Virus record (IMG/VR): IMGVR_UViG_3300022188_000009
Direction: 5' to 3' (one strand)
Origin: a virus
Lineage: Duplodnaviria > Heunggongvirae > Uroviricota > Caudoviricetes
Length of the DNA stretch: 64,000 nt
The position numbers and the translations under genes were made by a program. The number at the start of each line of letters is the position of its first letter. Positions within the stretch are counted from its first letter, which is position 1. The notes below the pieces were generated by a model. It was not told the origin of the DNA. It worked only from the letters and a program-made list of their open reading frames with translations, and did no database searches. Positions 24,842 to 59,511 of this stretch are shown here, piece after piece.

Positions 24842-25324
24842 ATGAATATTAAGATATTAGGAGCAAGAAAACGTTTTTATATCCCACCACTTGTTGTAAT
24901 ATATATTGCGTTTTTAATTGCAGCAATATCTACGAGTATTAAAGTAACTCGGGTATATAGAGTTTGCCCAGTATTTATTTGGTTTGTTGATGATAATATA
25001 TATGGTGGTGCTTCATTTGCTGGAATATGTAAAGGGCCAGTTATTCTAATTAATAAAAAATATCGTAATGATGAAGAAATACTGGCACATGAATTAGTTC
25101 ATTCAGAACAAGTTTACCGTACTTTTTTCTTACATTGGATTATTTGTTATTTATTCAGTGATTACCTTGCTGAGGCTGAAGCTGAAGCTTATGGACGTAC
25201 TGGTATGACAAGAGAAAGTGACGCAGATTATTATGCAAAATTTATCAAAGAAGAGTATGCACCTGAAACTGATGTTAAATTTATTGCTAAAAAACTGAGG
25301 TATTATTGGAAAATCAGTAATTAA
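24842..25324 (+). CDS. Membrane-anchored putative zinc metallopeptidase
   Basis: An N-terminal transmembrane helix followed by the HExxH motif in AHELVHSEQ. Confidence 0.4.
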   Translation: MNIKILGARKRFYIPPLVVIYIAFLIAAISTSIKVTRVYRVCPVFIWFVDDNIYGGASFAGICKGPVILINKKYRNDEEILAHELVHSEQVYRTFFLHWIICYLFSDYLAEAEAEAYGRTGMTRESDADYYAKFIKEEYAPETDVKFIAKKLRYYWKISN

Positions 25325-25344
25325 AAGGAGAAAATATAAGTATT

Positions 25345-26118
25345 ATGAAAACAACAAAGATTGACTGGGATACTAATAGTGCTCCTAAAAACTGTTACAC
25401 CAGCGATAGTATTCTATTTAGTTGGTTAACTACTCCAAAAAAGAATGTATTTCTGCAAGTCTCAAATTGGCATAGTTGTAGAGAGACTTTTATAACAGAA
25501 ATTCAACGTGCTTTAGGAATCACAGAATGGAGCTACATACGCAAGTTAAATTTACGTCGGATGAGGTTTGCAGTTATTCGTAATTATCCTAAAAAAGTAA
25601 CTAACTTTAAAAAGAAGACTAATTATGATATTATATGGATAAAAAACGCTAAACTAATTCTGAATTTATTTGAGAAACGCCTTGGTTGGGGGTTAACTAC
25701 AGTGTACAGAGTAGACCCTGAATGTGTTGGTGAAGATGCTAATGCCAATGTATTCGTATTTTCAGGATCTGTTAAATGGATGCGTTCTCCACAATTAATG
25801 TCCCTATATCTGTTGATTCTGCGTCTTAGTAAACACGCTCATTTTCAGAAAGTTAAAAGTATGGACGATTTGGGCGAATGGGTAAAAGAAAACAGGACTA
25901 AGGACCATCAAGATGCTGTATATTTAAAATATATTTATCCACACCTGTTTAATATATTGGATAATGTAGAATATCTTTTCTTTAAACGGTCTATGAAAAA
26001 GAATTTTGCTAAACAGGATGGATACAACGGCATTAATAATATGATTAACGGTATTGCTGATTATGTCACAAACTACAAATTAAATAAAATTAAAAAAAAA
26101 TGCAAAAAAAATGTTTAA
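25345..26118 (+). CDS. Member 1 of a five-gene paralogous family of unknown function (WHSCRETF and SPQLMSLYLLILRL motifs)
   Basis: Long segments of its DNA are identical to the gene at 26143..26907. Confidence 0.6.
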   Translation: MKTTKIDWDTNSAPKNCYTSDSILFSWLTTPKKNVFLQVSNWHSCRETFITEIQRALGITEWSYIRKLNLRRMRFAVIRNYPKKVTNFKKKTNYDIIWIKNAKLILNLFEKRLGWGLTTVYRVDPECVGEDANANVFVFSGSVKWMRSPQLMSLYLLILRLSKHAHFQKVKSMDDLGEWVKENRTKDHQDAVYLKYIYPHLFNILDNVEYLFFKRSMKKNFAKQDGYNGINNMINGIADYVTNYKLNKIKKKCKKNV

Positions 26119-26142
26119 ACATATAAAGGAAATATAGGTATT

Positions 26143-26907
26143 ATGAAAATGACGAAGATTAACTGGATATCTGGATATAACCCTAAACATTGTTACACCA
26201 GCGATAGTATTCTATTTAGTTGGTTAACTACTCCAAAAAAGAATGTATTTCTGCAAGTCTCAAATTGGCATAGTTGTAGAGAAACTTTTGTGTCTGAAAT
26301 TCCACGTGCTTTAGGAGTTAAAAAATGGCGTTATTCACGTAAGTTAGATTTACGTCGAATGAGGTTTGCAGTTATCCGTAAGTATACCACAAAAGTAACT
26401 AACTTTAAAAAACATATAGATTATGACGTTAAATGGATGAAAAATGCAAAGCGTATTTTGAATTTATTCGAGAAATACCTTGGTTGGGGGTTAACTACAG
26501 TGTACAGAGTAGACCCTGAATGTGTTGGTGAAGATGCTAATGCCAATGTATTCGTATTTTCAGGATCTGTTAAATGGATGCGTTCTCCGCAATTAATGTC
26601 ATTATATTTACTGATTCTACGGCTTAGTCGACACTATCATTTTCAGAATATTAAAAGTATGGATGATTTTGATAAGTGGATGAAAAAGAATGTAAATAGG
26701 GTGGATACAGACACTATGTACCTGAAAGCAGTTTATCCATATCTATTTAGTATATTAGATAATGTAAAATATCTTTTCTTTGAGCGATCCATGAAGAAAA
26801 ATTTTACTAAACAAACCGGAAATCATGGTATTAATAACATGATTAAGGGTATTGCTGATGATGCTACTATAGTAAGGTTCAATAAAATCAAGAAAAGGGC
26901 AAAGTAA
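26143..26907 (+). CDS. Member 2 of the paralogous family, the tandem duplicate of member 1
   Basis: A stretch of about 110 nt at 26478 is identical to the stretch at 25680. A stretch of about 90 nt at 26197 is identical to that at 25398. Confidence 0.6.
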   Translation: MKMTKINWISGYNPKHCYTSDSILFSWLTTPKKNVFLQVSNWHSCRETFVSEIPRALGVKKWRYSRKLDLRRMRFAVIRKYTTKVTNFKKHIDYDVKWMKNAKRILNLFEKYLGWGLTTVYRVDPECVGEDANANVFVFSGSVKWMRSPQLMSLYLLILRLSRHYHFQNIKSMDDFDKWMKKNVNRVDTDTMYLKAVYPYLFSILDNVKYLFFERSMKKNFTKQTGNHGINNMIKGIADDATIVRFNKIKKRAK

Positions 26908-27467
26908 TGTTTAAATATATAATTTGTTTACTATTTTGTTTCTCAATGTTTACTGGTTGTGCAACTATTAAAATCGAGCATAAAGGTTTACCTGTAGCAA
27001 ATAATATTGTGCGAGCAAGTATTCTTAGTGGAAATATTGAGATGAGTTCTGCCCTCATCAGGTATTATGGTAAAATTGAGGGTGATGAAGTGTTGTTGAC
27101 TTATGAGTATATAAAACTTCGTTCTAAAGAAAAACATCTTATTTCATCGTATAATTTGAAGGGGTTATGTTATAAAGTACAAGTTTTCAACCCACGAAAA
27201 GTAGAATACCAAATGTTTGTTGAACGTTATTATTATGACGAAACCAAACGTAAACGTATAACGTATGAATTCAAATCAATCTATGCAGGAAACCTATCGA
27301 TGAAAGATTTCAATATAAGCCTGCCACTAGATAAAGGAAGTAATGGTTACGTTCAATTATTTGTTCATGATGAAGATGGGCTAATTATTTACCAAAGCCC
27401 TAAGGCTGGTTATGAGATTGGTGAAATTAAGAGGAGTCGAATAACTGGTGGTTATAAGTCAAAATAG
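26907..27467 (+). CDS. Lipoprotein
   Basis: Lipobox in LLFCFSMFTGC. Confidence 0.5.
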   Translation: MFKYIICLLFCFSMFTGCATIKIEHKGLPVANNIVRASILSGNIEMSSALIRYYGKIEGDEVLLTYEYIKLRSKEKHLISSYNLKGLCYKVQVFNPRKVEYQMFVERYYYDETKRKRITYEFKSIYAGNLSMKDFNISLPLDKGSNGYVQLFVHDEDGLIIYQSPKAGYEIGEIKRSRITGGYKSK

Positions 27468-28004: not shown

Positions 28005-28037
28005 AATAACGAAGGCGTTGGTAACCACAATTTTGAT

Positions 28038-32128: not shown

Positions 32129-32935
32129 ATGGCTAGAAAAAAAATAGTAACAGTTGAATGGTTTAAAAGTGTAAATAAATTATGTGAATCTTATCAACAA
32201 ACAGGAATGGCTTTTGCTTTCGTAACAAGCCAAAAAGATGGAAATAAAATGTGTCATGAATGGGTAAAATGTAGAGATTTCTTACATGATGGTGTTCGCA
32301 CACAAATCACTGGTATACCATGTGAAATTTATGGATTTAAATTTAATACAAAAACAAATCCAAACATTTATCTTTACAAAATGCGTATGCTTGTAACAAA
32401 ATACAATTTAAAGACCACTGCTGATACAAAATTGTTTAATAAAAAAATAGTATCGGGTCTTAAATTAATTAATCATTTTGAAAAACAAGCTAAAGTTTCT
32501 CTGACTAAAGTACATAAAGTTGATACAAAAGATTCAGGAAAAGAGTCAATATTTATGTTCATAGGTCCAGCTATGTGGGTACATTCACCGTTTTTAGTGT
32601 CTATGTATACGTTCTTAATTCGTCTTGGGGATAAACAGATAAAATTCAAAAACGCCAATAGTCTTAAAAAAGAATTAAAAAGACTGAATACTAAATATAC
32701 AAAAGATGAATTATTAGATAATGATGCTGAATATCTAGGATGCTTGTGGGATAAATTACATATAATTATTAAAAATCGTGCTAAATTATTCACAAAGAAG
32801 AATAAAATGCATGATATTTATAGTGATGACATAAGTATAAATAATTTTCATAATAGATGCGGAATACGCAGTCTGGCAATGGGAACAACCCCAAACAACG
32901 AGCTTAATGAATGTATTAAGGAGATTTGTAAGTAA
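32129..32935 (+). CDS. Member 3 of the paralogous family
   Basis: VTSQKDGNKMCHEWVKCRDF...MWVHSPFLVSMYTFLIRL matches the family motifs. Start at MARKK, with the RBS aagaggag. Confidence 0.5.
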   Translation: MARKKIVTVEWFKSVNKLCESYQQTGMAFAFVTSQKDGNKMCHEWVKCRDFLHDGVRTQITGIPCEIYGFKFNTKTNPNIYLYKMRMLVTKYNLKTTADTKLFNKKIVSGLKLINHFEKQAKVSLTKVHKVDTKDSGKESIFMFIGPAMWVHSPFLVSMYTFLIRLGDKQIKFKNANSLKKELKRLNTKYTKDELLDNDAEYLGCLWDKLHIIIKNRAKLFTKKNKMHDIYSDDISINNFHNRCGIRSLAMGTTPNNELNECIKEICK

Positions 32936-33783
32936 TGACACAAAATGAAACAGTATCTGAAAAAACAGAAAAGAAAAAGTTAATTAGGGTGCATAATCGT
33001 TCTAAAAACGGTACAACTTATAAAGACAATTATAAATACTCATCAATCAACTTCGCATTTGTATCCAATCCAGAAAATGGTAGGAAACAGGCAACTAACT
33101 TAGTGACATGCCGCGAATATGTTAATCGTGTAGCATTAGGAGCAGCTACAGGTACTGGTGATCCTAACCATGACGTAAACAGTGACGCACCAATTGATTT
33201 TGATAGATTACGCCTTCTTATAGTGCATGATCCAGATGGCTGGGAGGAGTTTAGAACTAAACTATTTAATGGTAAAGCCTGTCTTAATTTACTTGAAAAG
33301 GTAAATAAATGGAAACCAAGTACGATTACTACAGTTAAACACGATACATATGACCATGCGTGGTTGTTAACTGGACCAAAAGAGTGGATGAGTCAGCCAC
33401 AACTTCTTTCTTTAGCAACTTGGATATTAAGACTTGCAGCTGTTGAAGGGCCAATCGAAACAACAAATTTTGATGTTTTTGAAGATGATTTGAAAAAACG
33501 CATAAATATTAACAATAGCCATGATTCCGGCCTATATTTAAATAATTTTTGGGACAAACTGTACATTTTGACTAAATATCATGATCAGATTTGGGAAGGT
33601 GTTGATGAAAAGAAAGCCTGGACCGATGTAGATCCTAGCAGTTTTGGTATTTATAGTGGGTTACTGAATTTTGTATCAAAAACTCCTAAATACTCTAATT
33701 GTGTTAGGATTACGCAAAAAAGATTTCTTGGCCTGTGCAAAGAACATTTGCCACGTAAAAAGAAACAGACTAAAGAAGATTAA
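32935..33783 (+). CDS. Member 4 of the paralogous family
   Basis: Carries the motifs LVTCREYV and EWMSQPQLLSLATWILRL. Confidence 0.5.
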   Translation: MTQNETVSEKTEKKKLIRVHNRSKNGTTYKDNYKYSSINFAFVSNPENGRKQATNLVTCREYVNRVALGAATGTGDPNHDVNSDAPIDFDRLRLLIVHDPDGWEEFRTKLFNGKACLNLLEKVNKWKPSTITTVKHDTYDHAWLLTGPKEWMSQPQLLSLATWILRLAAVEGPIETTNFDVFEDDLKKRININNSHDSGLYLNNFWDKLYILTKYHDQIWEGVDEKKAWTDVDPSSFGIYSGLLNFVSKTPKYSNCVRITQKRFLGLCKEHLPRKKKQTKED

Positions 33784-33814: not shown

Positions 33815-34738
33815 ATGGAAAAGTGTTTCACAATTGGATGTGATCCTGAATTCTTTCTTCGCGAAAAACAAAGCGGAAAATTAATTTCAGCTATTCCACA
33901 CATTAAAGGTACCAAAACAGAACCACAATTATTGCCAAAGGGAGGTAATATCCAACATGATAATGTTGCTGTAGAAATTGCAACAGATCCAGCAAAATCT
34001 ATGGAAATGTTTATACAAAATATCAAAATGACTTTGTCAGAAGCAGTAAGAACTTTACCTGCAGATACAGAGATTATTGCGATACCTTCAGCGAATTTTG
34101 ATAAAGACCAGCTTGAGCATCCAGAAGCACAGGTATTCGGCTGTGATCCTGATTATGATGCTTGGGAAATTCGTGAAAATGAAAAACCACATGCAGGAGA
34201 TAATACTTTTAGATCTTGTGGTGCCCATATCCATCTTGGTACTGACGGAAAAGATGAAAATTCTTTCCTACTTGATTTTGAAGGTAAGCTGACCACTGTA
34301 AAAATTATGGATTGTGTACATGGAATTATTTCTACTGTACTTGATTCCGGTAAAGAAGCTATCGACCGTCGTAAATTATACGGTAAACCTGGGGCTCATA
34401 GGCCAAAGGAATATGGCGTAGAATATCGAGTATTATCCAATTACTGGTTAAAAAGTCCAGTAACTGTATCAATGATGTACCATTTGTCAAAAGATGTATT
34501 GACTATTGTACGTGAAGGTAAAGCTGAAGAATTAATCAATGCAATGGGTGAAAGTCAGGTAAAGGCTACTATTGAGGACGGTAATGCAGATGATGCCATG
34601 AAGATGATTGAAACAAACCTATTACCCATCCTCAGTGAAGACTCAGTTTATTATTTTAATGAAGTTTTGGCAAAAATTAAAGCAAACGATATGAATTTCC
34701 ACATGGAGTGGGAACTATACAAGGAGGCAGTCGCATGA
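33815..34738 (+). CDS. Carboxylate-amine ligase of the GCS2 / glutamine-synthetase-like (amidoligase) family, copy 1
   Basis: The N-terminal TIGCDPEFFLRE matches the GCS2 lGvEeEfflvd motif. CGAHIHLGT matches the GCS2 HvHvgv motif. RBS aaggtaa. Confidence 0.6.
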   Translation: MEKCFTIGCDPEFFLREKQSGKLISAIPHIKGTKTEPQLLPKGGNIQHDNVAVEIATDPAKSMEMFIQNIKMTLSEAVRTLPADTEIIAIPSANFDKDQLEHPEAQVFGCDPDYDAWEIRENEKPHAGDNTFRSCGAHIHLGTDGKDENSFLLDFEGKLTTVKIMDCVHGIISTVLDSGKEAIDRRKLYGKPGAHRPKEYGVEYRVLSNYWLKSPVTVSMMYHLSKDVLTIVREGKAEELINAMGESQVKATIEDGNADDAMKMIETNLLPILSEDSVYYFNEVLAKIKANDMNFHMEWELYKEAVA

Positions 34739-35502
34739 AAATTGGTATACCGGTTTCTTTCAGTAACACACAGTATTATATTAACCAGGCCTATGTAAAA
34801 TATGTAGCTGATGCTGGCTATGAGCCAGTATTGCTTTCTCCGGAGTCATCAATAAAGACAGCTGTTAGCCTCATTGACGGTCTTATAATGCCCGGAGGTA
34901 TTGATGTTGATCCTATATACTATGGATATGACAACTTTTCATCTTATGCAGTTGACCCGCTAAAGGATGAATTTGAGCGGGAATTGTTTCATTCCGCCCG
35001 TGAAGCTAAATTGCCTATACTTGGTATTTGTCGTGGTTTCCAACTTATTATATATGAGTATATGGAGCACGATAACAACCTAATTGAGTTCATGGAGTTT
35101 AAACCACATATTTCTGGGCATAACCAGGTTGATGGCCAAAGATTACCACGTACTATTTCCCAGCACTTTGTTGATTATAACCCATCTACTCTTTATAATG
35201 CAAGCAGTACCAAAGCAGACTCAATGCCCGTAAATAGTATGCATCATCAATGCTTGGTTGTTGATTTTAAACGCAATGGGATTATCGGAATTCGTAATTT
35301 TCGTATGGGGGCTTGGACTACCCGTGGTATAAAGGTTAAAACAGTAAAAGACAGTAATCCAATGGTATGTGAAGCATTTCGTATAAGTAAATGGGGTGCA
35401 CCGATTTTGGCTGTACAGTGGCATCCTGAAGAAATAAAGGATTACGAGTTACTTCACCAATTCTTTGGTAATGTTAAAGCTGATACTATGGAGACTACGT
35501 AA
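34735..35502 (+). CDS. Class-I glutamine amidotransferase-like protein (peptidase C26 / gamma-glutamyl hydrolase PuuD-like), copy 1
   Basis: MKIGIPV...YVKYVADAGYEPVLL...DGLIMPGGIDVDP...LPILGICRGFQLI...HHQ...WHPE matches the C26 family, with a Cys-His-Glu catalytic triad. RBS aaggagg. Confidence 0.7.
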   Translation: MKIGIPVSFSNTQYYINQAYVKYVADAGYEPVLLSPESSIKTAVSLIDGLIMPGGIDVDPIYYGYDNFSSYAVDPLKDEFERELFHSAREAKLPILGICRGFQLIIYEYMEHDNNLIEFMEFKPHISGHNQVDGQRLPRTISQHFVDYNPSTLYNASSTKADSMPVNSMHHQCLVVDFKRNGIIGIRNFRMGAWTTRGIKVKTVKDSNPMVCEAFRISKWGAPILAVQWHPEEIKDYELLHQFFGNVKADTMETT

Positions 35503-35726
35503 TGTCATTCAGCATAGAAGTTATTTTCGATGATGATACTAAATTAACCACAGGATATAGGTTAAAGGACTTAATGGATGTTATTAAAAAATCTCCTTTA
35601 TACGAAAAAAGGTGTATCATGCCTGTAATCCCGTGGTTAATTGATTTAGGTATTGATTACGTTGGTTCTGGTTCACATAATAAGAGCATTAAACGTATCA
35701 ATATAGAGGAAAAGGTGGTAATATGA
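35502..35726 (+). CDS. Hypothetical small protein
   Basis: Its start and stop overlap the neighbouring genes. Confidence 0.35.
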   Translation: MSFSIEVIFDDDTKLTTGYRLKDLMDVIKKSPLYEKRCIMPVIPWLIDLGIDYVGSGSHNKSIKRINIEEKVVI

Positions 35727-37435
35727 TTAATCAAGTAGATATTGGTTATTTAAAAGAAATTGAAAACGTAAACTGGCTTTCTGAGGTAATAAGTGAGCGG
35801 TTCGATAATGCACTTGACATGTTAATTGACAACTCTATAATTTATGGTGGGGCTGTAAGGGATGTACTTGCGGATAAACCACTTGAAGGGGATCTTGACA
35901 TAGCAGTATTGCCAGAAAATTTTCAAATGATTTCAAAAACTTTTGCTGAAAATCCAAGATGGATAGCATATGCCCCTAGTCCAGGAAAATCACTTGGAGA
36001 TTCCGGTAAAATAGCCAGAGAACTCGCTCCAATGGGTAATATATCATCGTTTGTTAACATGAATAATGTTGTAGTACAACTCATTACATCAAACGATTTA
36101 AATAAAGATCGTATGCAGGCCGTTATGCACCCAGCACGCATGGTTGATATAGTGTGTTGTGGAGTTATAATGCTTAATGATGGGCGTGTGTTTGAAACCG
36201 TACCTGGTGCCCATAAAGACTGTATAGATGGGCTCCTTAGGCTAAACGAATCTTCAGATACTATGTATCTGGATGCTATACCTGCTAGAGTTAAAAAATT
36301 AGTTGCCCGCGGTTGGAAAAATCAGATTAATGTTGAAAAAGCAGTAGCAGAAATTAAATTGAAACGTGAACGTAGTAAAAAACCTCGTAAAAAAAGTGGA
36401 TGGGTCGGAAATAACCAATTTAAATGTCCAGATAAAATTGAGTATGAGATTTTTATGTACAATAAAACCTTAAAACTAGCAATTAATGGACATAAACGAG
36501 AAATTAAAAATCTGTATGAGCTGGGAGATAGCTACACAATATCTTCTCACGTCAACAATATTTGTCGAATTTGTAGACTTAACGCACGTATAATTAAATC
36601 ACCGCTTGGTCAAATATATATCGAATGTGCTGACAGGATAACAACTTCCAGTATTATCGCCAAATTGGATAAATATCGAAGAAAAAGAAAAACTTCTAAA
36701 AGAGCTCTTAGTAAACAATCAGACTATAGCCTTTTTGGCCCTTCTTCTGATGCTAAAAAAGTACATTATAAAGCAACATCTAAACAGTATGAGAATAGTG
36801 GTACACTTACAGGAAGATCAAGCGGAGGAAGAATTGCATCAGGTAGTGTAACAGGTCCTACAAGTGAGGTTATAAGTGAGCCAATAGAAGAAGACTTAGA
36901 AAAACCAATAGCTTATCGAAAAGACACTGTTAAAGTTAAATTTAGAGATTATAACGATCTTCCTGAAAATAAGAAACACGTAATAGCTACAGAAATTAGA
37001 GAAATAAGAGGTGAATTTGAAGCACTCGCTAAATTGGGACAAAAAGCAACTACAGACCACTTACTTGCTAAATTAAAGCCGAGAAAAGTCGTAACCGAGG
37101 AGCATACAGTCGATGTAGTAGAAAAACCTTCCGAAGTTAGTTTTCAAAACAGTACTGATGTAGAAGTATTTAAAAAATACATGACAGCCAGTGAAATTGA
37201 AGATTTAAAAAGAGGTTTGGAAACACTGCCTAAGAAAAAAAAGCTTAAGTGGGTACCACTTTCTAAATTAGACAATGTTACAAGCGAATCACTTTCTAAA
37301 GCAAATAAAAATCCGTGCTTAGAACAATCATTCGCTGAAAATGAGTGGAAAACAGCCCCTATAAAGAAAAAAAATACCATTTTTGATGAATTATTACTTC
37401 AAACCAAAAAGGAGGAGATAAACTCTAATGACTAA
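35723..37435 (+). CDS. Nucleotidyltransferase with a PolyA-pol/CCA-type head domain and a long, basic, low-complexity C-terminal extension
   Basis: NSIIYGGAVRDVLADKPLEGDLDIAV matches the GGxVRD...DxD motif of the class II tRNA nucleotidyltransferase and poly(A) polymerase family. Confidence 0.5.
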   Translation: MINQVDIGYLKEIENVNWLSEVISERFDNALDMLIDNSIIYGGAVRDVLADKPLEGDLDIAVLPENFQMISKTFAENPRWIAYAPSPGKSLGDSGKIARELAPMGNISSFVNMNNVVVQLITSNDLNKDRMQAVMHPARMVDIVCCGVIMLNDGRVFETVPGAHKDCIDGLLRLNESSDTMYLDAIPARVKKLVARGWKNQINVEKAVAEIKLKRERSKKPRKKSGWVGNNQFKCPDKIEYEIFMYNKTLKLAINGHKREIKNLYELGDSYTISSHVNNICRICRLNARIIKSPLGQIYIECADRITTSSIIAKLDKYRRKRKTSKRALSKQSDYSLFGPSSDAKKVHYKATSKQYENSGTLTGRSSGGRIASGSVTGPTSEVISEPIEEDLEKPIAYRKDTVKVKFRDYNDLPENKKHVIATEIREIRGEFEALAKLGQKATTDHLLAKLKPRKVVTEEHTVDVVEKPSEVSFQNSTDVEVFKKYMTASEIEDLKRGLETLPKKKKLKWVPLSKLDNVTSESLSKANKNPCLEQSFAENEWKTAPIKKKNTIFDELLLQTKKEEINSND

Positions 37436-37841
37436 CGAAAAGACTGATTTCTTTTTCGTCTACGGTACCCTTAAAGAAGGTGGCCATTTTGCAACCGATC
37501 TTGACCCTTTCCGTATTCGTTCTGAAAAGGCTGAACTTGATGGGTTTGAATTATTTAACTTAGGTTGGTTCCCTGGTATAAAAGAAGGAGACAGTAAAGT
37601 TTATGGAGAAGTCCATGAATATAAAAACTTAGGTTCAGTTCAACAGCGTCTTGATAATATTGAAGGGTATAATGAGAGTGACGAAAAGAACAGCTTATAT
37701 CTCAGGCGTCGTAAGACTGTAAATTTGGGTGCCGGTAAAGGAAAGATTGAAGCCAATGTGTACATATTTAATCAAAACGTACCGTCTGACGCAAAAAAGA
37801 TTGAATCTGGCGACTGGGATTTAGAAAAATACAGTAATTAA
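37428..37841 (+). CDS. AIG2/GGCT-like gamma-glutamylcyclotransferase-fold protein
   Basis: FFFVYGTLKEGG matches the YGTLKxG signature. RBS aaggagg. Confidence 0.65.
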   Translation: MTNEKTDFFFVYGTLKEGGHFATDLDPFRIRSEKAELDGFELFNLGWFPGIKEGDSKVYGEVHEYKNLGSVQQRLDNIEGYNESDEKNSLYLRRRKTVNLGAGKGKIEANVYIFNQNVPSDAKKIESGDWDLEKYSN

Positions 37842-38531: not shown

Positions 38532-39254
38532 ATGGCAGATCGTATTTTAGTGGTTAATGGAGCAAGTTATGCGAGAGCTATAGATGGATTGGGGGACCCA
38601 ACTTCAAGGGTTTCTCAATTTATGGAAAGTCCTAAGGATTTCAAGCTTGTATTGTTTACTGGAGGGGCTGATGTTGATCCAAGATTTTATGGAGATACTA
38701 GCCCTAAAAGACTTTGTCAAGCTAACCCTGAACGAGATATATTTGAAATTTCTATCTTCAAAAAGGCTAAAAAAGCAGAAGTTTTAATGACTGGTATATG
38801 CCGAGGACTACAATTTCTTAATGTAATGAATGGTGGTAAAATGATCCATCATTTAGAGAATCATGGTTTTGGAACACATGATATGATTACTGATTGTGGA
38901 GATGTCATACCTGTTAATTCTTTACATCATCAAATGATTATTCCTGGTATGGATTCTATAGTTACAGGATGGACAGAATCGCTTTCTAAATTACATATAG
39001 GCCAAGACGATGAAGAAATTAACTGGCCGGGCGTAAATTATGAAGCAGCAATATACACAAACACAAAGTGCTTCGGCGTACAATACCATCCTGAGATGCT
39101 GAATAATGACAGCGAAGGTTACCAATATTATTATGATATGGTACACCGTGCTCTAACTATGGATTGGAATGACTTCGTCGAGCCTCACCTAATAAAGGCT
39201 AAAGATGGAAAATCTTCTAAAATATCTCAATCTAATTCTTGTATTACCTGGTAA
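38532..39254 (+). CDS. Class-I glutamine amidotransferase-like protein (peptidase C26-like), copy 2
   Basis: LFTGGADVDPRFYG...LMTGICRGLQFLNVMNGG...SLHHQ...QYHPE. RBS taggaggcc. Confidence 0.65.
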   Translation: MADRILVVNGASYARAIDGLGDPTSRVSQFMESPKDFKLVLFTGGADVDPRFYGDTSPKRLCQANPERDIFEISIFKKAKKAEVLMTGICRGLQFLNVMNGGKMIHHLENHGFGTHDMITDCGDVIPVNSLHHQMIIPGMDSIVTGWTESLSKLHIGQDDEEINWPGVNYEAAIYTNTKCFGVQYHPEMLNNDSEGYQYYYDMVHRALTMDWNDFVEPHLIKAKDGKSSKISQSNSCITW

Positions 39255-49097: not shown

Positions 49098-50261
49098 ATG
49101 GAACTGAGTATAAAAATTTCTGCTACTATGAATAAGGAATCAGATTGGAACGATTTTTATGAACATCGTATTATCCGATTGCCTGCAGATGCTAGATCAA
49201 AATATAATTTACAGATTGAAGATTTTCTCTATCTGAGGAATAAATTTGGTGGGTATATAACCCTACAGATAGCAGAGGCATTTAAAGAGGATGTTGAAAG
49301 AAATCATCTATGTGGTTACGTAACTGCCACGAATTATGATAAATTATTTATTAAATCCCAAGATACTAATGAAGTCCAACAAGTGAGGGATATAACCCTC
49401 GGCTGTGACCCAGAAGCTTTTTTAGTTGATACTACAACCGGTAACATTATCGCAGCTCATCGATTTATGAAAAAATACGGGGATGTTGGACACGATGGTA
49501 TGTTACTTGAATTCAGACCATTACCATCAACCAGTGAAAATGTAGTTACAGCAAATATTGCAAATTTAATAATGAAAGCAAGAAAAATACTTAATGAGAG
49601 CACTGAGGGGCTTAAATACACGATGGTTGGTGCTTCCTCATGTCACGGCCTAGCTGCAGGTTTTCATCTCCATTACGGGCTTCCTGCAGGCCTTCTTGGA
49701 CGTAGACCAGCTGTGTCTAATATCGCTAAATTAATGACCAAAGCATTTGATTATTATATAGGTATTCCATCTATTATACCTGAAGGAAATGAAGACACCA
49801 GTAGACGAACGATGCAATTTGTTGAATATGGGAAGCCTGGTGGATACCGTTTAGATAATCGTACCTTTGAATATAGATTGCCTGGTGGTATAAATTTGAG
49901 GCATCCTTGTTTAACAAGAGGGCTTATGGCTCTGGGGGCCGTTGTTGTGGAGGACTTAGTTAGTAGGATACATACAAGTACTGATTACTTCTCAAATTTG
50001 AAAGAGGTGGCCACGGATGAGGATTTAAAAACTATTTATCCGAGATTACCTGTTATTGAGACACTTTATTCGGTAATCTGTAATCCTGATATCGGTCCTG
50101 CGAAAGCACATTTTGATGTTATAAAGGAAGATATACGAAAAATGATCGGTTACAGTGAACGTGCAGCATCAGTTGAATCTTATTTTACGTGTTTGGATCA
50201 TGGTATCCAGTATGATTCTAATCTTGAAGCAAATTGGGGAGGTTTTAATGAGAAACAGTAA
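49098..50261 (+). CDS. Carboxylate-amine ligase (GCS2/GS-like amidoligase), copy 2
   Basis: Carries ITLGCDPEAFLVD, and HGLAAGFHLHYG as the HxH motif. RBS gggggg. Confidence 0.55.
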   Translation: MELSIKISATMNKESDWNDFYEHRIIRLPADARSKYNLQIEDFLYLRNKFGGYITLQIAEAFKEDVERNHLCGYVTATNYDKLFIKSQDTNEVQQVRDITLGCDPEAFLVDTTTGNIIAAHRFMKKYGDVGHDGMLLEFRPLPSTSENVVTANIANLIMKARKILNESTEGLKYTMVGASSCHGLAAGFHLHYGLPAGLLGRRPAVSNIAKLMTKAFDYYIGIPSIIPEGNEDTSRRTMQFVEYGKPGGYRLDNRTFEYRLPGGINLRHPCLTRGLMALGAVVVEDLVSRIHTSTDYFSNLKEVATDEDLKTIYPRLPVIETLYSVICNPDIGPAKAHFDVIKEDIRKMIGYSERAASVESYFTCLDHGIQYDSNLEANWGGFNEKQ

Positions 50262-51945: not shown

Positions 51946-52767
51946 ATGTGTGCTATTTTTGGAGTAGGATTTCAACGAGGTTGTAAAATATGTAATAATG
52001 AGATGGTACGGGAGATTATCCGTAATTTATTTCTTGAAAATATGGTAAGGGGCCGGACAGCTTCTGGCCTCGCCTATGTTTCAGGTAAAGAAATTCAAGT
52101 AATTAAGAAGAATACTGCTGCTTGTGATTTTATTCAGTTACCTGACTATAAAAAATCAAATCTTACATATTTAAAAATGTCGAATTCTGAAGATTCTATA
52201 AATTCAGAACATCGACCTGTTTCGGTACTTGGACATTGCAGATTAAAAACGAAAGGGACAGAACTTAATAATGTCAACAATCACCCAATTATAAGAGATA
52301 ATATAGTTGGAGTGCATAACGGTATGATTAGTAATGATGACTACTTATTTGACCATTATTCAGATAAATTCAAGCGTAACGGAAAAGTCGATAGTGAGAT
52401 TATATTTGCATTAATTGAGCATTATTCTGGCAATAACGGGACAATAGTTGAAGCCATTCAGAAAGCAAATCAAGAGATCTACGGAGGATTTGCCTGTGCC
52501 ATGGTACATAGATTTCAACCATACATTGTGTGGTTATTTAGAAACAGCAATCCATGTTCTATTTTTCATTACAAAGATAGTGGCCTTGTAATCTGGTCAT
52601 CAATGCCACAGTTTATAAGGTCGGCAACAAAAGGATATACTTTAGGGGAACCAGAAGAAATTGAATTTCCTGCAGAGACTGGAATTGCAATTGATCTATA
52701 TCAGAATAAATTTTACAGGTTCAAATTAAAGGACCAAGGAAAAGAAACTAATGCAGGAGTTCACTAA
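51946..52767 (+). CDS. Class-II (Ntn) glutamine amidotransferase, copy 1
   Basis: N-terminal MCAIFG, whose Cys would be exposed after Met removal. Also RGRTASGLA, HCRLKTKG...NNHP and VDSEII. RBS agaggtg. Confidence 0.6.
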   Translation: MCAIFGVGFQRGCKICNNEMVREIIRNLFLENMVRGRTASGLAYVSGKEIQVIKKNTAACDFIQLPDYKKSNLTYLKMSNSEDSINSEHRPVSVLGHCRLKTKGTELNNVNNHPIIRDNIVGVHNGMISNDDYLFDHYSDKFKRNGKVDSEIIFALIEHYSGNNGTIVEAIQKANQEIYGGFACAMVHRFQPYIVWLFRNSNPCSIFHYKDSGLVIWSSMPQFIRSATKGYTLGEPEEIEFPAETGIAIDLYQNKFYRFKLKDQGKETNAGVH

Positions 52768-53756: not shown

Positions 53757-55763
53757 ATGTGTGGAGTTGTAAGTGCATTAGCATACGGTGAGTTTGAGAC
53801 AAATAGAGAGGAAAAGACTCGACAAGAGTCCATTATTTTCCTTGTTTCTGAATTACTCCAACTCACGCAATCACGAGGCAAAGACGCCACAGGTATTGCA
53901 ACTATGTTCGCAAATTGTGACTATATGGGGCTGAAGATGGGTGTTTCGGCTCAAGAGTTTGTTGGACGATTTGGTGGAACGGAGAAGGATTATGACGGTT
54001 ATTTGGATATATGGCGGAAGAAAAAACATCCAGCTAAGATTGTTATTGGACACTGTCGTAAACCATCGGTAGGAGGCAACGCCGGTGCAGACGACAATAA
54101 TAACAATCACCCAATTAAAGTAGGTGATATTATTGGAGTACATAACGGTACATTAGATAACCATGAAAACATATTCAAAAATTTGGATTGTACTCCTGAA
54201 TCTAACGTGGATAGTGAAGCTATCTTCAGGCTGCTACACCATTTTACTGATAATGGTACAAAACCTTTCACAACTGAAAGTATACTTGAGACCTGTAAAC
54301 GTATGGGTGGTACTTACTCATGTTTAACATTTAGTGGTAATAACCCATATCAAATGGCCGCATTTCGCGATGGTCGGCCTCTGGAAGCATGTATAATACG
54401 TCCACTCAAATTATTACTTATCGCAAGTGATAAGGATTTTCTGAAAGCAGCAGTCTTCCGTTATAACAAAATGGCTCATCTATATCAGACTGGGGCTGTT
54501 AAATTTCTATCATTAAAGAAAGACGATATAGACCTTGAGACGTTAAAAGATGACTGTATGTATCTTTTTGATGTGCAGGATGAAATAAATTCAAAAACAC
54601 AGATTAAAGATCTGTATATTTCTGAAAAGGTACCACGTGCAGATAAAATTTGGAAAAAATCCGGTGGATCTACAACTATGTGGCATCGTAATAACCAGAA
54701 TCGTAATACAGTGGTAAAAAAAACAACAGTGACAACATCCAAACCGGACAACCAGTCTGGGACTCATGGAAAAGAAAGTACAACTGGGGATAATAAAACA
54801 AAACGGTTGGGTATGGTTTGGAATCGAAGTAATTATAAATATGAATCCATTCATGATGTGGATAAAGCGGATAAACATGGAAGTACAGAAATTGATATAG
54901 ATAATGGGGAAATAATTGATATTTCTAATAATGTAATAATTCAAGAAGGCGAAAAAAAAATAGACAAATCGATCTTACAAGTAGAAAATGATATTACACA
55001 TCCTCTTGAAGAGTCAGATAATCCTGTAGATAATCTTATTTCTGACCCAGCTAAAATTAATGAAATTGCTATTTCTCAAATTGAGGAGATACAGAATAAA
55101 ACTAACTCTTCAGACACAAACAACACCTCTGAGGATGTTAATTTACCCAAAAAAGCCCTTCTACTTGATTATGTAAAGCAACATAAGAAAATCGAGATAG
55201 ATGCATCGACTTACCCTGATGTTGTAGAAAAGGCCCAAAAAGCTACAAAAGAAGAAGAAACCTTCAGCAGCAACGACGAGCTTGCTGATGCTATTGAAGT
55301 AACAAATGTAAATATTATGAAAAATATGTCTACATACTCTTTAGCTAATCGGATCAAGGCGTTCTTCTTTAGAAAAGGCTGGTATGCTGGGTATATTACA
55401 CGCATGAAAGAAGAAGAGAGTGTAATGGTTGGGGGTGATTACTCACGTAAAATGTTGATAAGATCTCGTAATAAAGCTCTTAATGCTCAGAAAACCATTA
55501 AAATGATGAAAATAATGGTAAAGATTTACGATAATATAACTGGACAATGCTTGCTTACGCCTACTTATGGCAACGTTTTTGGCAAACAACAGTCCCATAT
55601 CATCCAGGATTGTAAAATTAATCGAGCAGTAACTGAAATTTTTGATAAAAATGAACATATCAGACCCAACTCTGTGCTGAATCTATTTAGTGAAGGAGAT
55701 ATGAAAAATAGTTCATTCTTAAAACGTATTACATCTGCGATATCACACAAATGCAGTAATTAG
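53757..55763 (+). CDS. Class-II (Ntn) glutamine amidotransferase, copy 2, with an approximately 440-aa C-terminal extension
   Basis: N-terminal MCGVVSA. Also ATGIATMF, HCRKPSVGGN...NNHP and VDSEAIF. RBS ggaggtaa. Confidence 0.6.
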   Translation: MCGVVSALAYGEFETNREEKTRQESIIFLVSELLQLTQSRGKDATGIATMFANCDYMGLKMGVSAQEFVGRFGGTEKDYDGYLDIWRKKKHPAKIVIGHCRKPSVGGNAGADDNNNNHPIKVGDIIGVHNGTLDNHENIFKNLDCTPESNVDSEAIFRLLHHFTDNGTKPFTTESILETCKRMGGTYSCLTFSGNNPYQMAAFRDGRPLEACIIRPLKLLLIASDKDFLKAAVFRYNKMAHLYQTGAVKFLSLKKDDIDLETLKDDCMYLFDVQDEINSKTQIKDLYISEKVPRADKIWKKSGGSTTMWHRNNQNRNTVVKKTTVTTSKPDNQSGTHGKESTTGDNKTKRLGMVWNRSNYKYESIHDVDKADKHGSTEIDIDNGEIIDISNNVIIQEGEKKIDKSILQVENDITHPLEESDNPVDNLISDPAKINEIAISQIEEIQNKTNSSDTNNTSEDVNLPKKALLLDYVKQHKKIEIDASTYPDVVEKAQKATKEEETFSSNDELADAIEVTNVNIMKNMSTYSLANRIKAFFFRKGWYAGYITRMKEEESVMVGGDYSRKMLIRSRNKALNAQKTIKMMKIMVKIYDNITGQCLLTPTYGNVFGKQQSHIIQDCKINRAVTEIFDKNEHIRPNSVLNLFSEGDMKNSSFLKRITSAISHKCSN

Positions 55764-55776: not shown

Positions 55777-57069
55777 ATGGCACGCGAAAAGTTAATTATA
55801 GTCCAATCTGCAAGTATGGATAGTAATAAAAAGAAAGATAGGAATGAACACAGTCTTATTCGTATGAGTAAAGTTACCCGTAATACTATGGACTTCGATA
55901 ATAGTGTAGAAGTGTATCCTGTAACTAAAAGTACTGAAAAAAGAATGAAAGGAGCAATGCTTCTGGACATTTTTCAAGCTTTTTCAACTGATATTAAAAA
56001 GCTTCGTGCTGAAGGATTCACTGATACTGAGCTCAACAACGTTGGATTTGTAACTACCAAAACATTCAACAAGATTAACGGTGTTACTAAAGAAAGTAGT
56101 GGAAATATATGGGTAACTGATGATATCGCTGATACTATTATTGGTGCAGATCCTGAATTCCTACTATTCGATAATAATGGTGAAGTTATTCGTGCGAACA
56201 ACGTACTTGGCTATCACGGCCCTATTGGATGTGATGGTGCAATGGCTGAAGTTCGTCCTATGCCTGCCATTCAACCGGAAGAATTGGTTGAAAATATGGA
56301 AAAATTGTTTAAAACTAAGGAATTAGTAGAAGCAATTGAGCCGTATAACTGGATGGCTGGGTGTTATTATAAAGATAGTGCTCGTGATTACCCACTTGGT
56401 GGCCATATTCATATTGGTAATCCAATAAAAGTGGCCAATATGGATAGTTCAATACGAAGAAGATTTTTCACGTCCTTCAATAAAATTTTGGATGAACTAC
56501 TGGCTGTGCCAATGATCAAAATTGACGGTAGTTCTCTTGGTCGTGCTCGACGAACAGAGTGCTCTATGGGAAAATATGGGTATTTTGGAGAGTTTAGAGT
56601 ATGTAATGGTCGACTGGAATATAGAACCTTAAGTGGGCTGTGGATGATGCACCCAACATTGGCTATAATGGTTCTAGGCACAGCTAAAGCTATTATTGAT
56701 GAAGTATTTCGGCATGTAGCAGATAAAGAGTACAAACCTACCTATACATGTCCTTCAAAGTTCAATGATACCAATGTGTGGAAAAAAGATTTTGATTTAT
56801 GGGCTCAAATTCCCTTATGTAAAGATCTTGGCTGTACAAAATCTTCTGATAAAATGATTGAACTATTGCATAATTCATCAGCAACCAAGATTACTGTTCC
56901 TTATTTAAAAAGTTGGTATGGAAGAATGAAAAAATTATCGACTTACAAACAGTATGGTAAATATATTGACGGGCTATATGAAATATTGAAGAATAGTACT
57001 AAAACTTTTAACAATTATGATAAGAGAATACAGTCTAATTGGTTAGAAGACAAAAAATTCTTAGATTAA
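55777..57069 (+). CDS. Carboxylate-amine ligase (GCS2/GS-like amidoligase), copy 3
   Basis: Carries IGADPEFLLFD and LGGHIHIGNP. RBS aggagg. Confidence 0.55.
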   Translation: MAREKLIIVQSASMDSNKKKDRNEHSLIRMSKVTRNTMDFDNSVEVYPVTKSTEKRMKGAMLLDIFQAFSTDIKKLRAEGFTDTELNNVGFVTTKTFNKINGVTKESSGNIWVTDDIADTIIGADPEFLLFDNNGEVIRANNVLGYHGPIGCDGAMAEVRPMPAIQPEELVENMEKLFKTKELVEAIEPYNWMAGCYYKDSARDYPLGGHIHIGNPIKVANMDSSIRRRFFTSFNKILDELLAVPMIKIDGSSLGRARRTECSMGKYGYFGEFRVCNGRLEYRTLSGLWMMHPTLAIMVLGTAKAIIDEVFRHVADKEYKPTYTCPSKFNDTNVWKKDFDLWAQIPLCKDLGCTKSSDKMIELLHNSSATKITVPYLKSWYGRMKKLSTYKQYGKYIDGLYEILKNSTKTFNNYDKRIQSNWLEDKKFLD

Positions 57070-57090: not shown

Positions 57091-57891
57091 ATGAAAGAAA
57101 TTAAAATAGATTTTATTGATGAATATTCTCCAGCAAATCTTTACTCTACTAAAGATATATATTTTTCATGGTTAACTGCCCCCAAAAAAAATGTACTTTA
57201 TCAAATTACAAAGTGGCATAGTTGCCGAGAAACGTTTGTTGGAGAATTAAATAAACAGTTCGATGAAAAAAGAAAATGGCCCTATAAATATGAAATCAAC
57301 ACTACACATACAAGGTTTGCTGCTACACATAAATACATTAATAATATGCACATTAACCATTTTGAAAAAACGTGTGCTAACAACCTTAGATGTGCAAAAC
57401 ATGCTAAACGGCTTCTGAATTTATTCGAAAAATATCTTGGTTGGGGACTAACTACAATATATAAATGTAATAATGATAACTTTACCAAGCACAGAATTGA
57501 TATGTTTGTAGTATATGGTTCAGCAAAGTGGTTAAGATCCCCACAACTTATGTCATTATATTTATTAATCATTCGACTTTCAAAAAATGAGTATTTTCAA
57601 ACACTTAAAAATATCAATGATATAAAAAAATTCAGTAGTAATATTAAAAATAATGATTCTCAGGATATAATTTTTTGGAAAAGAATCAATCCATATCTTT
57701 TCAGAATATTAGATAATGTAAATGATTTATTTTTCCATCAATCTATAAAAAACTCACATACAGAGCAGTCAGGAACATCTGGTATAAATAATTTGGTAAA
57801 TGGATACAGTAATAAAGTAACAAACGGTGTATTTTGTAAAATTAAAAATGATATTGACAATAAGATGCCTGATTCTACGCTAAAAAGATAA
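57091..57891 (+). CDS. Member 5 of the paralogous family
   Basis: Carries YFSWLTAPKKNVLYQITKWHSCRETF and WLRSPQLMSLYLLIIRL. Confidence 0.55.
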   Translation: MKEIKIDFIDEYSPANLYSTKDIYFSWLTAPKKNVLYQITKWHSCRETFVGELNKQFDEKRKWPYKYEINTTHTRFAATHKYINNMHINHFEKTCANNLRCAKHAKRLLNLFEKYLGWGLTTIYKCNNDNFTKHRIDMFVVYGSAKWLRSPQLMSLYLLIIRLSKNEYFQTLKNINDIKKFSSNIKNNDSQDIIFWKRINPYLFRILDNVNDLFFHQSIKNSHTEQSGTSGINNLVNGYSNKVTNGVFCKIKNDIDNKMPDSTLKR

Positions 57892-57945: not shown

Positions 57946-59049
57946 ATGTCTATTGACAAAACAATTGAGAATGGTTATATTTGGTATAGTGGAGCGACAA
58001 ATACGACTGGGGAGAAGCTTGCTGTAGCTCTCGGCATGAAACACGGTAGAAAAAAACCAGTGATGTCAAACACGAGCTTATGCATTGGTTGGGGAGCAAA
58101 AATAAAAGAAGATATCGGGCTATCGGACAAAATGGTACTTAATCACCCAAATAAGATCAGAATAAATAGAAATAAATTACTTGCTCTTGAACTTATGAAG
58201 AAGAATGATGTATCAGTGGCCCCATTTTGTACAGATACAGGAACAGCAGCCATGAAGAAATCTGGAACAATGCTGCCGGTAATTGGCCGTACGAAATACC
58301 ACCAGGGCGGTAAAGGGTTTTGGAGCTGCCCTACTATGACTCATATAAAAGAGGCAAAGAATGCCGGAGCTGTGTACTTTCAAAACCTTATTGAAATTAA
58401 AGACGAGTTCAGGTTACATATTGTTGGTGATAAATGTATATATGCCGTAAAGAAAGTCAAGCGTACAGTTAAAGAGATGGAAGAAGCATACGTCAGGCAT
58501 GAAATGGAGCGTCAGAAACAATTGGCGGAAAAGAATAATGACCAGTTTGATGATGCAACTGCCAAACTATTTCTTAAACGGCAGGCTAAAAAGTTTGCAC
58601 ATGACGGTGCAGACATGATGATAAGGTCAAACAGACTTGGATGGAGATTCTCTCACATAAAGACACCTGGCAAGAATCTGGTTACAGAGTCTATTAAAGC
58701 ATGTAAAGCAATTGGCCTTGATTTTGGTGCCGTTGATTGTTGTATTGATGTAAATGATAAACCATTTATCATTGAAGTAAACACAGGCCCAGGTTTAGAA
58801 GAAACTCCGTTCAATGCGTGGGTTGAAGCTCTACGTGTTATGATTACTGACACTCTTAAACCGAAAAGTAAAGTTGGTAAACTCGTAGAGAAAGTTTCCG
58901 GTATTGTAAATGTTAAGAAACCGGCTACTAAGTCTTCCAAGAACAAGTTGGCTGACAAATTAGCATTGGCACAGGAAATGGTGGAAGCTGCAGATGAGGA
59001 GGAGATAACCGTACTTGATAGAGTATTCAGTAATATGTTTGGTAAATAA
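57946..59049 (+). CDS. ATP-grasp ligase (RimK / glutathione-synthetase-like)
   Basis: EFRLHIVGDKCIYAVKK and DFGAVDCCIDVNDKPFIIEVNTGPG match the ATP-grasp C-terminal D..E.N..PG metal-binding motif. RBS aaggag. Confidence 0.6.
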   Translation: MSIDKTIENGYIWYSGATNTTGEKLAVALGMKHGRKKPVMSNTSLCIGWGAKIKEDIGLSDKMVLNHPNKIRINRNKLLALELMKKNDVSVAPFCTDTGTAAMKKSGTMLPVIGRTKYHQGGKGFWSCPTMTHIKEAKNAGAVYFQNLIEIKDEFRLHIVGDKCIYAVKKVKRTVKEMEEAYVRHEMERQKQLAEKNNDQFDDATAKLFLKRQAKKFAHDGADMMIRSNRLGWRFSHIKTPGKNLVTESIKACKAIGLDFGAVDCCIDVNDKPFIIEVNTGPGLEETPFNAWVEALRVMITDTLKPKSKVGKLVEKVSGIVNVKKPATKSSKNKLADKLALAQEMVEAADEEEITVLDRVFSNMFGK

Positions 59050-59058: not shown

Positions 59059-59511
59059 ATGGTAGAGTTTTATGTTTCGTTATCAAATCATGACATAGCT
59101 CAACAGGTCACTACAATGGTTAATACGTATAATCGTTGGTATACGAAATTATCTACACAAGCATTACTGATAAGCTCAGCCAGCTACTTTACGGAAATAG
59201 AATGTAATAGAGTAGTTGGCTGTGCTTCATTTGTTCATGAGTATAACAATTATACAAAAATACAACATATTTGTGTGCTTCCATCTCACAGACAGAGAGG
59301 AATAGCACACAGATTATCAGAATTAGCAATTGCAAACTCAAAAACAGAATATGTATACATGACGATTCGTGAGGATAATATTTCAAGTATTAAACTTGCT
59401 AAATCTTTAAAATTTGTTTACATTAAAAAACATTGGTTTCGAGACCATTGGACCTTAACTTTTGGAAGGAGACGTGAACATGTTGGAAACAACTATACAG
59501 CAACAATGTAA
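59059..59511 (+). CDS. GNAT-family acyltransferase
   Basis: HICVLPSHRQRGIAHRL is GNAT motif A, (Q/R)xxGxG/A. RBS aaggag. Confidence 0.6.
   Translation: MVEFYVSLSNHDIAQQVTTMVNTYNRWYTKLSTQALLISSASYFTEIECNRVVGCASFVHEYNNYTKIQHICVLPSHRQRGIAHRLSELAIANSKTEYVYMTIREDNISSIKLAKSLKFVYIKKHWFRDHWTLTFGRRREHVGNNYTATM

Follow-up and report, generated by a model that had tools for sequence, protein, structure and literature searches.

Amidoligase cassettes of tailed phages were reportedly interpreted by Iyer et al. in 2009 as systems for peptidoglycan modification. In that work and in Hardies 2013 the cassette is said to combine a PF14395 ligase, an Amidoligase_2 protein (PF12224), a class-II glutamine amidotransferase (GATase), an ATP-grasp protein and a GGACT protein, and its reported hosts are phiEco32, LUZ24/PaP3/tf, RIO-1, CW02 and others. 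Later papers describe it as a predicted peptidoglycan-modification module that is thought to block superinfection (PMC5498523, PMC11945000, PMC10580990), with the peptidoglycan stem peptide as its predicted target (PMC5498523, PMC11945000); we found no experimental test of this prediction in the literature searched. Amidoligase and GATase genes are also carried by thymidine-hypermodification clusters, and paralogous pairs in which a conserved Cys has a Glu nearby have been described (Lee et al. 2021, PMC8989533); the aGPT-Pplase fold is of the helix-hairpin-helix, glycosylase-like kind (PMC8989533). Here we describe five paralogous proteins of one family, A to E, encoded by a 64,000-nucleotide (nt) stretch of tailed-phage DNA (Caudoviricetes; IMG/VR record IMGVR_UViG_3300022188_000009), which we call the window and which also encodes an amidoligase cassette.

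An 86.7-kb metagenomic contig contains the window as approximately its first 64 kb; the window is AT-rich (33% GC) and has nearly all of its predicted genes on the + strand. That the linkage of this family to the amidoligase system is conserved well beyond the window is strongly supported. We give roughly even chances to the interpretation that the family is a dedicated partner of the PF14395 COOH-NH2 ligases, enzymes of the glutamine synthetase (GS) fold, within the amidoligase/amidotransferase/ATP-grasp/GGACT cassette.

A five-member protein family

The five genes are as follows.

Paralog A: 25345..26118, + strand; 257 amino acids (aa); standalone A-type copy, apparent ortholog of the single copy in relative L008.
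Paralog B: 26143..26907, + strand; 254 aa; apparently an older tandem paralog of A.
Paralog C: 57091..57891, + strand; 266 aa; between the ligase gene Lig2 and the ATP-grasp gene.
Paralog D: 32129..32935, + strand; 268 aa from the ATG at 32129; the longest open reading frame (ORF) begins at 32027.
Paralog E: 32935..33783, + strand; 282 aa; in the most populous subfamily.

A first, sequence-only reading of this DNA had recognized the five ORFs as paralogs, and their homology, all on one strand, is borne out. BLASTP E-values between copies are 2e-11 for A-E, 3e-14 for A-D and 7e-16 for D-E, and a scan of the window with a hidden Markov model (HMM) of the family returns exactly these five copies. 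Amino-acid identity is 75% between A and B, 44% between A and C, and 24-29% between A and D or E. The long conserved blocks that had been proposed for the whole family (YTSDSILFSWLTT..., GWGLTTVYRVDPEC) hold for A and B and partly for C, whereas D and E have in common with the other copies only the scattered residues C45, R46, R74, E110, W145, P149, S153 and R160. The C-termini of the five proteins are unlike one another and mostly basic.

Linkage to PF14395 ligases beyond the window

Three members had been seen to flank amidoligase genes, and this arrangement is confirmed: D and E lie directly upstream of the PF14395 ligase gene at 33815 (Lig1), and C lies directly downstream of the one at 55777 (Lig2). 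A family-first sample, made up of contigs reached from P0049, P0014, P0010, P0120, P0087, P0077 and P0119, has a family gene directly beside a PF14395-type ligase in all seven contigs that are long enough. When IMG/VR loci were instead collected by their ligases, 30 of 79 carried a same-strand family gene within 10 kb; loci with a ligase that matches Lig1 at 38% identity or more are nearly all among these 30.

Gene order within the cassettes follows either FAM-FAM-LIG-C26 or LIG-x-Amidoligase_2-GAT2-(ATP-grasp)-FAM, where FAM is the family gene and LIG the ligase. Small phages (20-50 kb contigs) carry, in order, the ligase, a gene for a 236-aa protein, Amidoligase_2, a class-II GATase, (ATP-grasp) and the family gene, with DnaB adjoining. 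The most divergent family member (L100 8001-9706, reached from P0120) forms with a PF14395 ligase a bare two-gene unit that has no amidotransferases, which argues that the ligase is the specific partner. This unit is surrounded by genes for glycosyltransferases (GT2/GT9), an NAD-dependent epimerase, methyltransferases and a Prim-Pol protein.

Locus L006 (9127-9981), and likewise L007, has a very divergent extra COOH-NH2-type ligase of 284 aa directly upstream of the A-type copy. It has no precomputed Pfam match, retains intact ExE, HxH and EYR motifs, and is absent from the window. Other cassette ORFs of 180-420 aa that lack an assigned function were clustered and compared by hhalign as possible relatives of the family, all with negative results.

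Extent of the family and fusion proteins

None of the five copies matches an entry in Pfam, PHROGs or NCBIfam, no Pfam family was matched consistently by 58 diverse family members, and a profile search of Protein Data Bank (PDB) sequences with the family returned nothing. A tblastn search of 50,697 phage records with A, E and a small-phage member as queries found no family homolog in cultured phages, a megablast search with the region found no match, and a related-locus search with the five-copy alignment returned one locus. Metagenomes are far richer. A word-indexed search yielded 120 clusters of the family, and an exhaustive HMMER search of 1.84 billion representatives (public-metagenome sequences clustered at 50% identity) yielded 2,017 at E ≤ 1e-3, or about 2,000 family representatives, of which 348 reach E ≤ 1e-30.

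In at least 18 of the top 150 representatives, two family domains are joined in a single protein of 520-570 aa, a D-E fusion. The N-terminal half of these fusions is D-like and the C-terminal half mostly E-like, so that paralog D is the counterpart of the first half and E of the second, in the same order as the separate genes. The stop codon of D and the start codon of E overlap as TAATG in the window, and the overlap is also found in relatives. Because D and E are fused in other phages and their genes overlap in this way, the two proteins probably act as a pair.

Phylogenetic analysis resolves three old clades, namely D, E and A/B/C. Between the window and four relatives, orthologs are 52-61% identical for D, 49-63% for E and 38-52% for the A-type copy; the corresponding values are 74-83% for Lig1, 59-62% for the first Peptidase_C26 protein (C26a), 52-56% for GGACT and 64-68% for RNA polymerase. 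Since the values for D and E resemble those of the neighboring GATase and GGACT genes, D and E look like ordinary conserved genes rather than hypervariable ones.

Conserved residues and predicted fold

Across 265 family domains, C45 and W145 are present in 100%, and position 46 is Arg or Lys in 100%. E110 and G229 follow at 99.6%, R160 at 99%, E/D47 at 98%, S153 at 97%, R74 at 96% and N107 at 93%, and the conserved residues are kept in both halves of the D-E fusions. No Lys is invariant in these 265 domains. A scaffold would fit the overall pattern less well than an active or ligand-binding site.

An AlphaFold2 model built with a 58-sequence alignment has a predicted local distance difference test score (pLDDT) of 95.9 and a predicted template-modeling score (pTM) of 0.93. 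Its N-terminal part is an antiparallel sheet with helices and its C-terminal part a bundle of helices. C45 is placed where helix 46-56 begins, and nucleophilic thiols typically occupy such positions. The predicted sheet corresponds to the antiparallel beta-sheet “cradle” of carboxylate-amine ligases (GS/GCL/PafA). Judged from this model, the family fold is probably that of the neighboring PF14395 ligases, GS-like alpha/beta, and the family probably descends from the carboxylate-amine ligase fold. Structure prediction and remote-homology searching had been proposed as checks in the sequence-only reading, and together they have given a confident model and a match to no named family. That reading had also considered that the proteins might prove to belong to a well-known structural family, for example a tail fibre chaperone, with no ligase linkage in related phages; neither was found. 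No remote homology to virion structural or chaperone families appeared in PHROGs, Pfam, NCBIfam or PDB sequences, and the only significant match in a BFVD search is an uncharacterized protein of an uncultured phage.

Sequence similarity between the family and the ligases is confined to one motif. The sole hhalign match to the ligase profile is W-x-x-S-[PY]-x-L-[LM]-S-x6-R, which covers W145, S153 and R160 of the family, and the same W-x-x-S motif recurs in HMM alignments to two distant ligases (sub-threshold reciprocal matches). Among the non-family matches of the family HMM, ligases account for six of the top 15, compared with about 1.6% of ORFs, and the register is consistent in two of the six. 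Direct homology to the neighboring ligase was not significant by hhalign or jackhmmer. In the alignable segment, ligase residues E203 and R205 are replaced by hydrophobic residues in the family. The metal-binding Glu and His and the ATP-binding Arg of PF14395 are presumably among D10, E12, E54, H138, H140, R185/R186/R196 and E203-x-R205. The invariant Glu, His and Arg residues of the ligases have no identifiable counterpart among the conserved residues of the family, none of which looks like part of an ATP or metal site.

The A/B tandem pair

The pair at 25345 and 26143 was originally noted for identical stretches of about 110 nt at 25680 and 26478, from which a very recent duplication or gene conversion had been deduced. 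The identity is real, extends over 111 nt and is accompanied by a second tract of 92 nt.

Putative gene-conversion tract 1: 25680..25790, + strand; 111 nt identical to 26478-26588; residues ~112-149, including W115, G141, W145 and P149.
Putative gene-conversion tract 2: 25393..25484, + strand; 92 nt identical to 26191-26282; residues 17-47, including C45-R46-E47.

A and B differ at 159 of 771 aligned nt, and identical runs this long arose in none of 20,000 permutations. The genes were compared with X, the single A-type copy of relative L008/L009, whose nucleotide identity to the window is 82-90% over aligned stretches and in which X is flanked by the same two genes as the A/B pair. Outside the two tracts, synonymous divergence (dS) is 1.26 for A-B, 0.52 for A-X and 0.94 for B-X; inside them it is 0.05, 0.51 and 0.42, respectively. 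The neighbor-joining topology is (B,(X,A)). By this grouping, and because A-X synonymous divergence is smaller than that of A-B, A is the ortholog of X and B an older paralog, and by the same comparison the A/B duplication predates the split from the single-copy relative.

The fall in A-B divergence from 1.26 outside the tracts to 0.05 inside them indicates that the tracts were homogenized by gene conversion after the split from X. Of the two earlier suggestions, gene conversion is therefore retained, whereas a very recent duplication is at odds with the divergence outside the tracts. Constraint at the nucleotide level was excluded as the cause of the identical tracts, for X differs by 12-20% there (dS ~0.5). 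The contig name (k141_...) suggests an assembly k-mer of 141, and both tracts are shorter; an assembly artefact is a possible but unlikely source of them. Both tracts code for the most conserved protein motifs of the family, and recombination would be expected to be seeded in such segments. The pair offers a clean example of gene conversion in phage tandem paralogs that mimics recent duplication.

Two further checks proposed at the outset concerned selection and copy number. For the whole A/B gene, dS is 0.68 and the ratio of nonsynonymous to synonymous divergence (dN/dS) is 0.22; in all comparisons dN/dS lies between 0.17 and 0.33, which is purifying selection with no sign of positive selection. 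The A-type locus does vary among relatives, with one copy in L008, L006, L001 and L005, two in the window and three in L002/L003. An apparent difference between L002 and L004 was discarded, because L004 has a 100-N scaffold gap (2227-2326) at copies 2 and 3 and is otherwise identical to L002 around it. Tandem paralogs can break or collapse assemblies, as this gap illustrates, so copy numbers read from scaffolds need care. In L002, which is a large-phage contig, an IS605 OrfB/Cas12f-like TnpB gene (3506-4573) has been inserted upstream of the three tandem copies.

Cassette genes and their surroundings

The remaining cassette genes of the window are listed below.

Lig1: 33815..34738, + strand; PF14395 COOH-NH2 ligase, 307 aa; always directly downstream of D/E.
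C26a: 34735..35502, + strand; Peptidase_C26/class-I glutamine amidotransferase.
p74 (35502-35726) and p570 (35723-37435): 35502..37435, + strand; conserved cassette genes without an assigned function.
GGACT: 37428..37841, + strand; gamma-glutamyl cyclotransferase.
C26b: 38532..39254, + strand; second Peptidase_C26/GATase.
Lig3: 49098..50261, + strand; third PF14395 ligase, 387 aa, E 5.7e-18; missing from the sequence-only reading; its 3′ end overlaps the start of a 578-aa ORF (p578).
Class-II (GATase_6) glutamine amidotransferase: 51946..52767, + strand.
Class-II GATase with a long C-terminal extension: 53757..55763, + strand; 668 aa.
Lig2: 55777..57069, + strand; PF14395 COOH-NH2 ligase, 430 aa.
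RimK-like ATP-grasp ligase: 57946..59049, + strand; E 3.8e-4, just below the Pfam cut-off.
GNAT acetyltransferase: 59059..59511, + strand.

These genes form two segments. The first runs, in order, through the RNA ligase gene Rnl1, D, E, Lig1, Peptidase_C26, p74, p570, GGACT and the second Peptidase_C26, and the second through Lig3, p578, the class-II GATase, p327, the long class-II GATase, Lig2, C, ATP-grasp and GNAT. An ORF at 42351-45776 encodes an RNA polymerase of 1,141 aa that unites beta-like (Rpb2_6) and beta′-like (Rpb1_2) domains in one protein. A similar fused polymerase ORF is found downstream of the cassette in those large-phage relatives whose retrieved stretch reaches that far (L001-L004, L101-L103).

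An RNA-repair-like set at 30859-32085 and 62485-63927 comprises a T4 Rnl1-type RNA ligase directly upstream of D and a CCA-adding enzyme with an HD domain; Rnl1 is also directly upstream of D in L002, L006 and L019. Just past the window (L098 13747-16670) are a cold-shock-domain protein and a faint TROVE/Ro-like protein. A and B reside at 24842-29352 within a run of probable envelope-targeted proteins. The run contains a 160-aa protein that has a hydrophobic N-terminal segment and a HELVH (HExxH) motif, one of 186 aa whose signal is lipoprotein-like (..FTGC), and two with signal-peptide-like N-termini; an SLT transglycosylase is encoded at 30127-30837.

Farther away, at 6733-9394, genes for an HNH/NUMOD4 endonuclease, an EcoRI-type adenine methyltransferase (E 3e-133) and a GmrSD_N+HNH protein stand side by side; modified DNA is the specific target of GmrSD-family endonucleases. 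A YcaO-domain protein (E 6e-48; 17679-19043) is kept in relatives, and a weak radical-SAM protein is encoded at 3687-4727. The sole tRNA in the window is tRNA-Gln (anticodon TTG) at 3037-3111.

Possible role and alternatives

If the family proteins are dedicated partners of the PF14395 ligases, they probably arose from the ligase fold, are no longer ATP-dependent ligases and have a new Cys/Arg/Glu site. They would form a complex with the ligase, and D and E, being translationally coupled in the window and fused in other phages, may constitute a heterodimer. The Cys45 thiolate would lie in an Arg-rich carboxylate/phosphate-binding pocket and capture a ligase-activated acyl group (e.g. gamma-glutamyl phosphate) as a thioester, which would then be passed to the final acceptor; alternatively, the protein may hold that acceptor. 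The paralogs could provide different specificities, with D/E serving Lig1, C serving Lig2/ATP-grasp, and A/B standing alone. An active role is favored because the conservation resembles that of an active or ligand-binding site rather than that of a scaffold.

A bolder proposal, which we offer only tentatively, is that the family constitutes a new class of Cys-dependent enzymes derived from a GS-fold amidoligase. With the PF14395 ligase, such an enzyme would make up a two-component “activate-then-transfer” machine that moves an acyl-phosphate to a Cys45 thioester and on to an acceptor, and so decorates a macromolecule (a peptidoglycan precursor, DNA or tRNA), with the D/E heterodimer, C and A/B representing donor or acceptor specificities. 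An envelope target is mildly consistent with the nearby SLT transglycosylase, with the secreted, lipoprotein-like and HExxH membrane proteins encoded around A/B, and with the position of the L100 pair among glycosyltransferases. The conservation of Rnl1 directly upstream of D/E in several lineages and the adjoining replication genes keep a nucleic-acid target open.

Several observations weigh against a dedicated ligase partner of this kind. No family member was detected in 49 of the 79 ligase-first loci or in the cultured LUZ24-like phages, which have more distant PF14395 cassettes, so a family partner is not universal for these ligases, and A and B have no adjoining ligase in the window. A Foldseek search of the PDB gave nothing significant, and profile searches did not place the family in PF14395, PF12224 or related HMMs, the hhalign probability against PF14395 being 0.7%. 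The loss of ligase residues is seen solely in one alignable segment, and elsewhere the two families do not align. The D-E fusion model has a pTM of 0.54 and does not settle the domain packing, and a single shared pocket for the conserved residues is an assumption. Finally, to our knowledge a Cys-thioester role has no direct precedent in a GS-type fold.

Degenerate amidoligase copies might instead act as non-catalytic pseudo-ligase subunits that scaffold or regulate a complex, for example by bridging ligase and GATase for ammonia channeling as PurS does in PurLQS. We regard this as rather unlikely. The predicted GS-like fold, the loss of the ligase Glu and Arg where the families align, the constant adjacency to the ligase and usually also to a GATase, and the D-E fusions, which suggest a structural module, would all suit such subunits, but about ten polar residues, including the lone Cys, are 96-100% conserved across paralogs that are only ~20-25% identical, and the L100 pair persists without a GATase. 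Tight linkage to the ligase would equally be expected if the family proteins were substrates or carrier scaffolds and the ligases built a modification on them, with the invariant E110 and C45 as possible attachment sites. Carrier-protein chemistry with ATP-grasp and GGACT enzymes is known from LysW/LysX and BtrI/BtrJ/BtrG. These proteins are large for that task (~270 aa), have many conserved polar residues and are predicted to adopt the fold of the enzyme family itself. With no invariant Lys, and with C-termini that differ among the five copies and are mostly basic, a substrate or scaffold role is less likely than that of an active partner, and we consider it very improbable.

Another reading is a nucleic-acid-modifying enzyme that resembles the paralogous-pair, Cys/Glu-dependent aGPT-Pplase proteins in function without being homologous to them. 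It would transfer an amino-acid or gamma-glutamyl group onto DNA or tRNA, and ligases, GATases and GGACT would then tailor that group. The C-[RK]-[ED] motif of the family, the siting of the cassette amid genes of replication, transcription and RNA repair (in four lineages a T4-type Rnl1 gene directly precedes D; DnaB, primase and RNA polymerase are near) and the precedent of amidoligase and GATase genes together with Cys- and Glu-bearing paralogous pairs in thymidine-hypermodification clusters (PMC8989533) all point in this direction. Such an enzyme is nevertheless distinctly unlikely: none of 58 members has a Pfam aGPT-Pplase match, the modeled fold is alpha/beta GS-like and not glycosylase-like, and the window ORFs scanned include no 5-hydroxymethyl-deoxyuridine (5-hmdU) DNA kinase or dUMP hydroxymethylase. 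Least probable of all, to the point of being hardly credible, is that the paralogs are independent, rapidly diversifying anti-defence or host-takeover effectors that lie near ligases by chance. The A-type locus, with its one, two or three copies, orthologs less conserved than their neighbors (38-52% identity) and setting among predicted envelope-targeted proteins, would fit that description, and rapid divergence had been put forward when only the letters were read. The data go the other way, with dN/dS values of 0.17-0.33 and no sign of positive selection, D/E orthologs 49-63% identical, about ten residues near-invariant in 265 domains, ligase adjacency kept across very distant phages, and D-E fusions.

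Comparison with known systems

Like the described peptidoglycan-modification cassette, the locus sits among replication and transcription genes (PMC5498523). The window has an expanded set of the same components, with three PF14395 ligases, two class-II GATases, two C26 GATases, ATP-grasp, GGACT and GNAT, and its small relatives carry a compact form that includes Amidoligase_2. It differs in that the family is not among the cassette components named in the later literature. LUZ24-like phages (tf, LUZ24, NV1, SCYZ1, Pae-1) encode gp14 and gp15, two proteins of ~300 aa whose genes immediately precede that of the PF14395 ligase, in the position of D/E. The gp14 and gp15 groups each have an invariant N-terminal Cys followed by F/W-G (L089 777-2590 for tf; L093 451-2388 for LUZ24). 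Homology of the family to gp14/gp15 (tf_17/tf_18) was not detected by hhalign with single sequences and small alignments, leaving them as positional analogues only. A large-database search with tf_18 returned tf_18 alone, and a BFVD match to a 307-aa protein of phage tf was weak (E 0.24) and was not substantiated.

The aGPT-Pplase amino-acid:DNA transferases of thymidine hypermodification (Iyer 2013; Lee 2021) resemble the family in having a conserved Cys with a nearby acidic residue and, in some cases, an association with amidoligase or GATase genes (PMC8989533). Membership of the family in aGPT-Pplase, as suggested by the paralogous pair, the Cys and the amidoligase context, was rejected because there is no Pfam match and the fold differs, being alpha/beta GS-like in the model as opposed to helix-hairpin-helix glycosylase-like. 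Pfam comparison of ~55 window ORFs, like the precomputed Pfam matches of the flanking gene tables, revealed neither a 5-hmdU DNA kinase nor a dUMP hydroxymethylase.

Among the carboxylate-amine ligases (GS, GshA/GCS2, PafA/Dop), PafA and Dop begin with a beta-sheet domain and end in a helical one, a layout that the family model repeats. The family also has the W-x-x-S-P...S...R helix motif in common with the PF14395 ligases. Unlike these ligases, it is much smaller (~260-280 aa), has no membership at the HMM level and carries a new invariant Cys-Arg-acid motif, with ligase Glu203 and Arg205 hydrophobic where the sequences can be aligned.

The amidoligase/GATase/ATP-grasp/GGACT cassette is widespread, in phages that range from podoviruses of 40 kb to genomes of at least 300 kb. 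What is new here is that a large unnamed family, of about 2,000 clusters at 50% identity, is a core and tightly linked component of the cassette in many uncultured phages. To this family can now be assigned a predicted fold and, as candidate active site, C-[RK]-[DE] together with three Arg, Glu and Trp; D and E are likely to pair as a heterodimer. These results provide concrete mutants and partners for reconstituting the pathway and would justify a new Pfam or DUF (domain of unknown function) entry. Set beside the systems described before, the cassette is a known but uncharacterized one, to which the family would add a specific, fold-related partner of its ligases.

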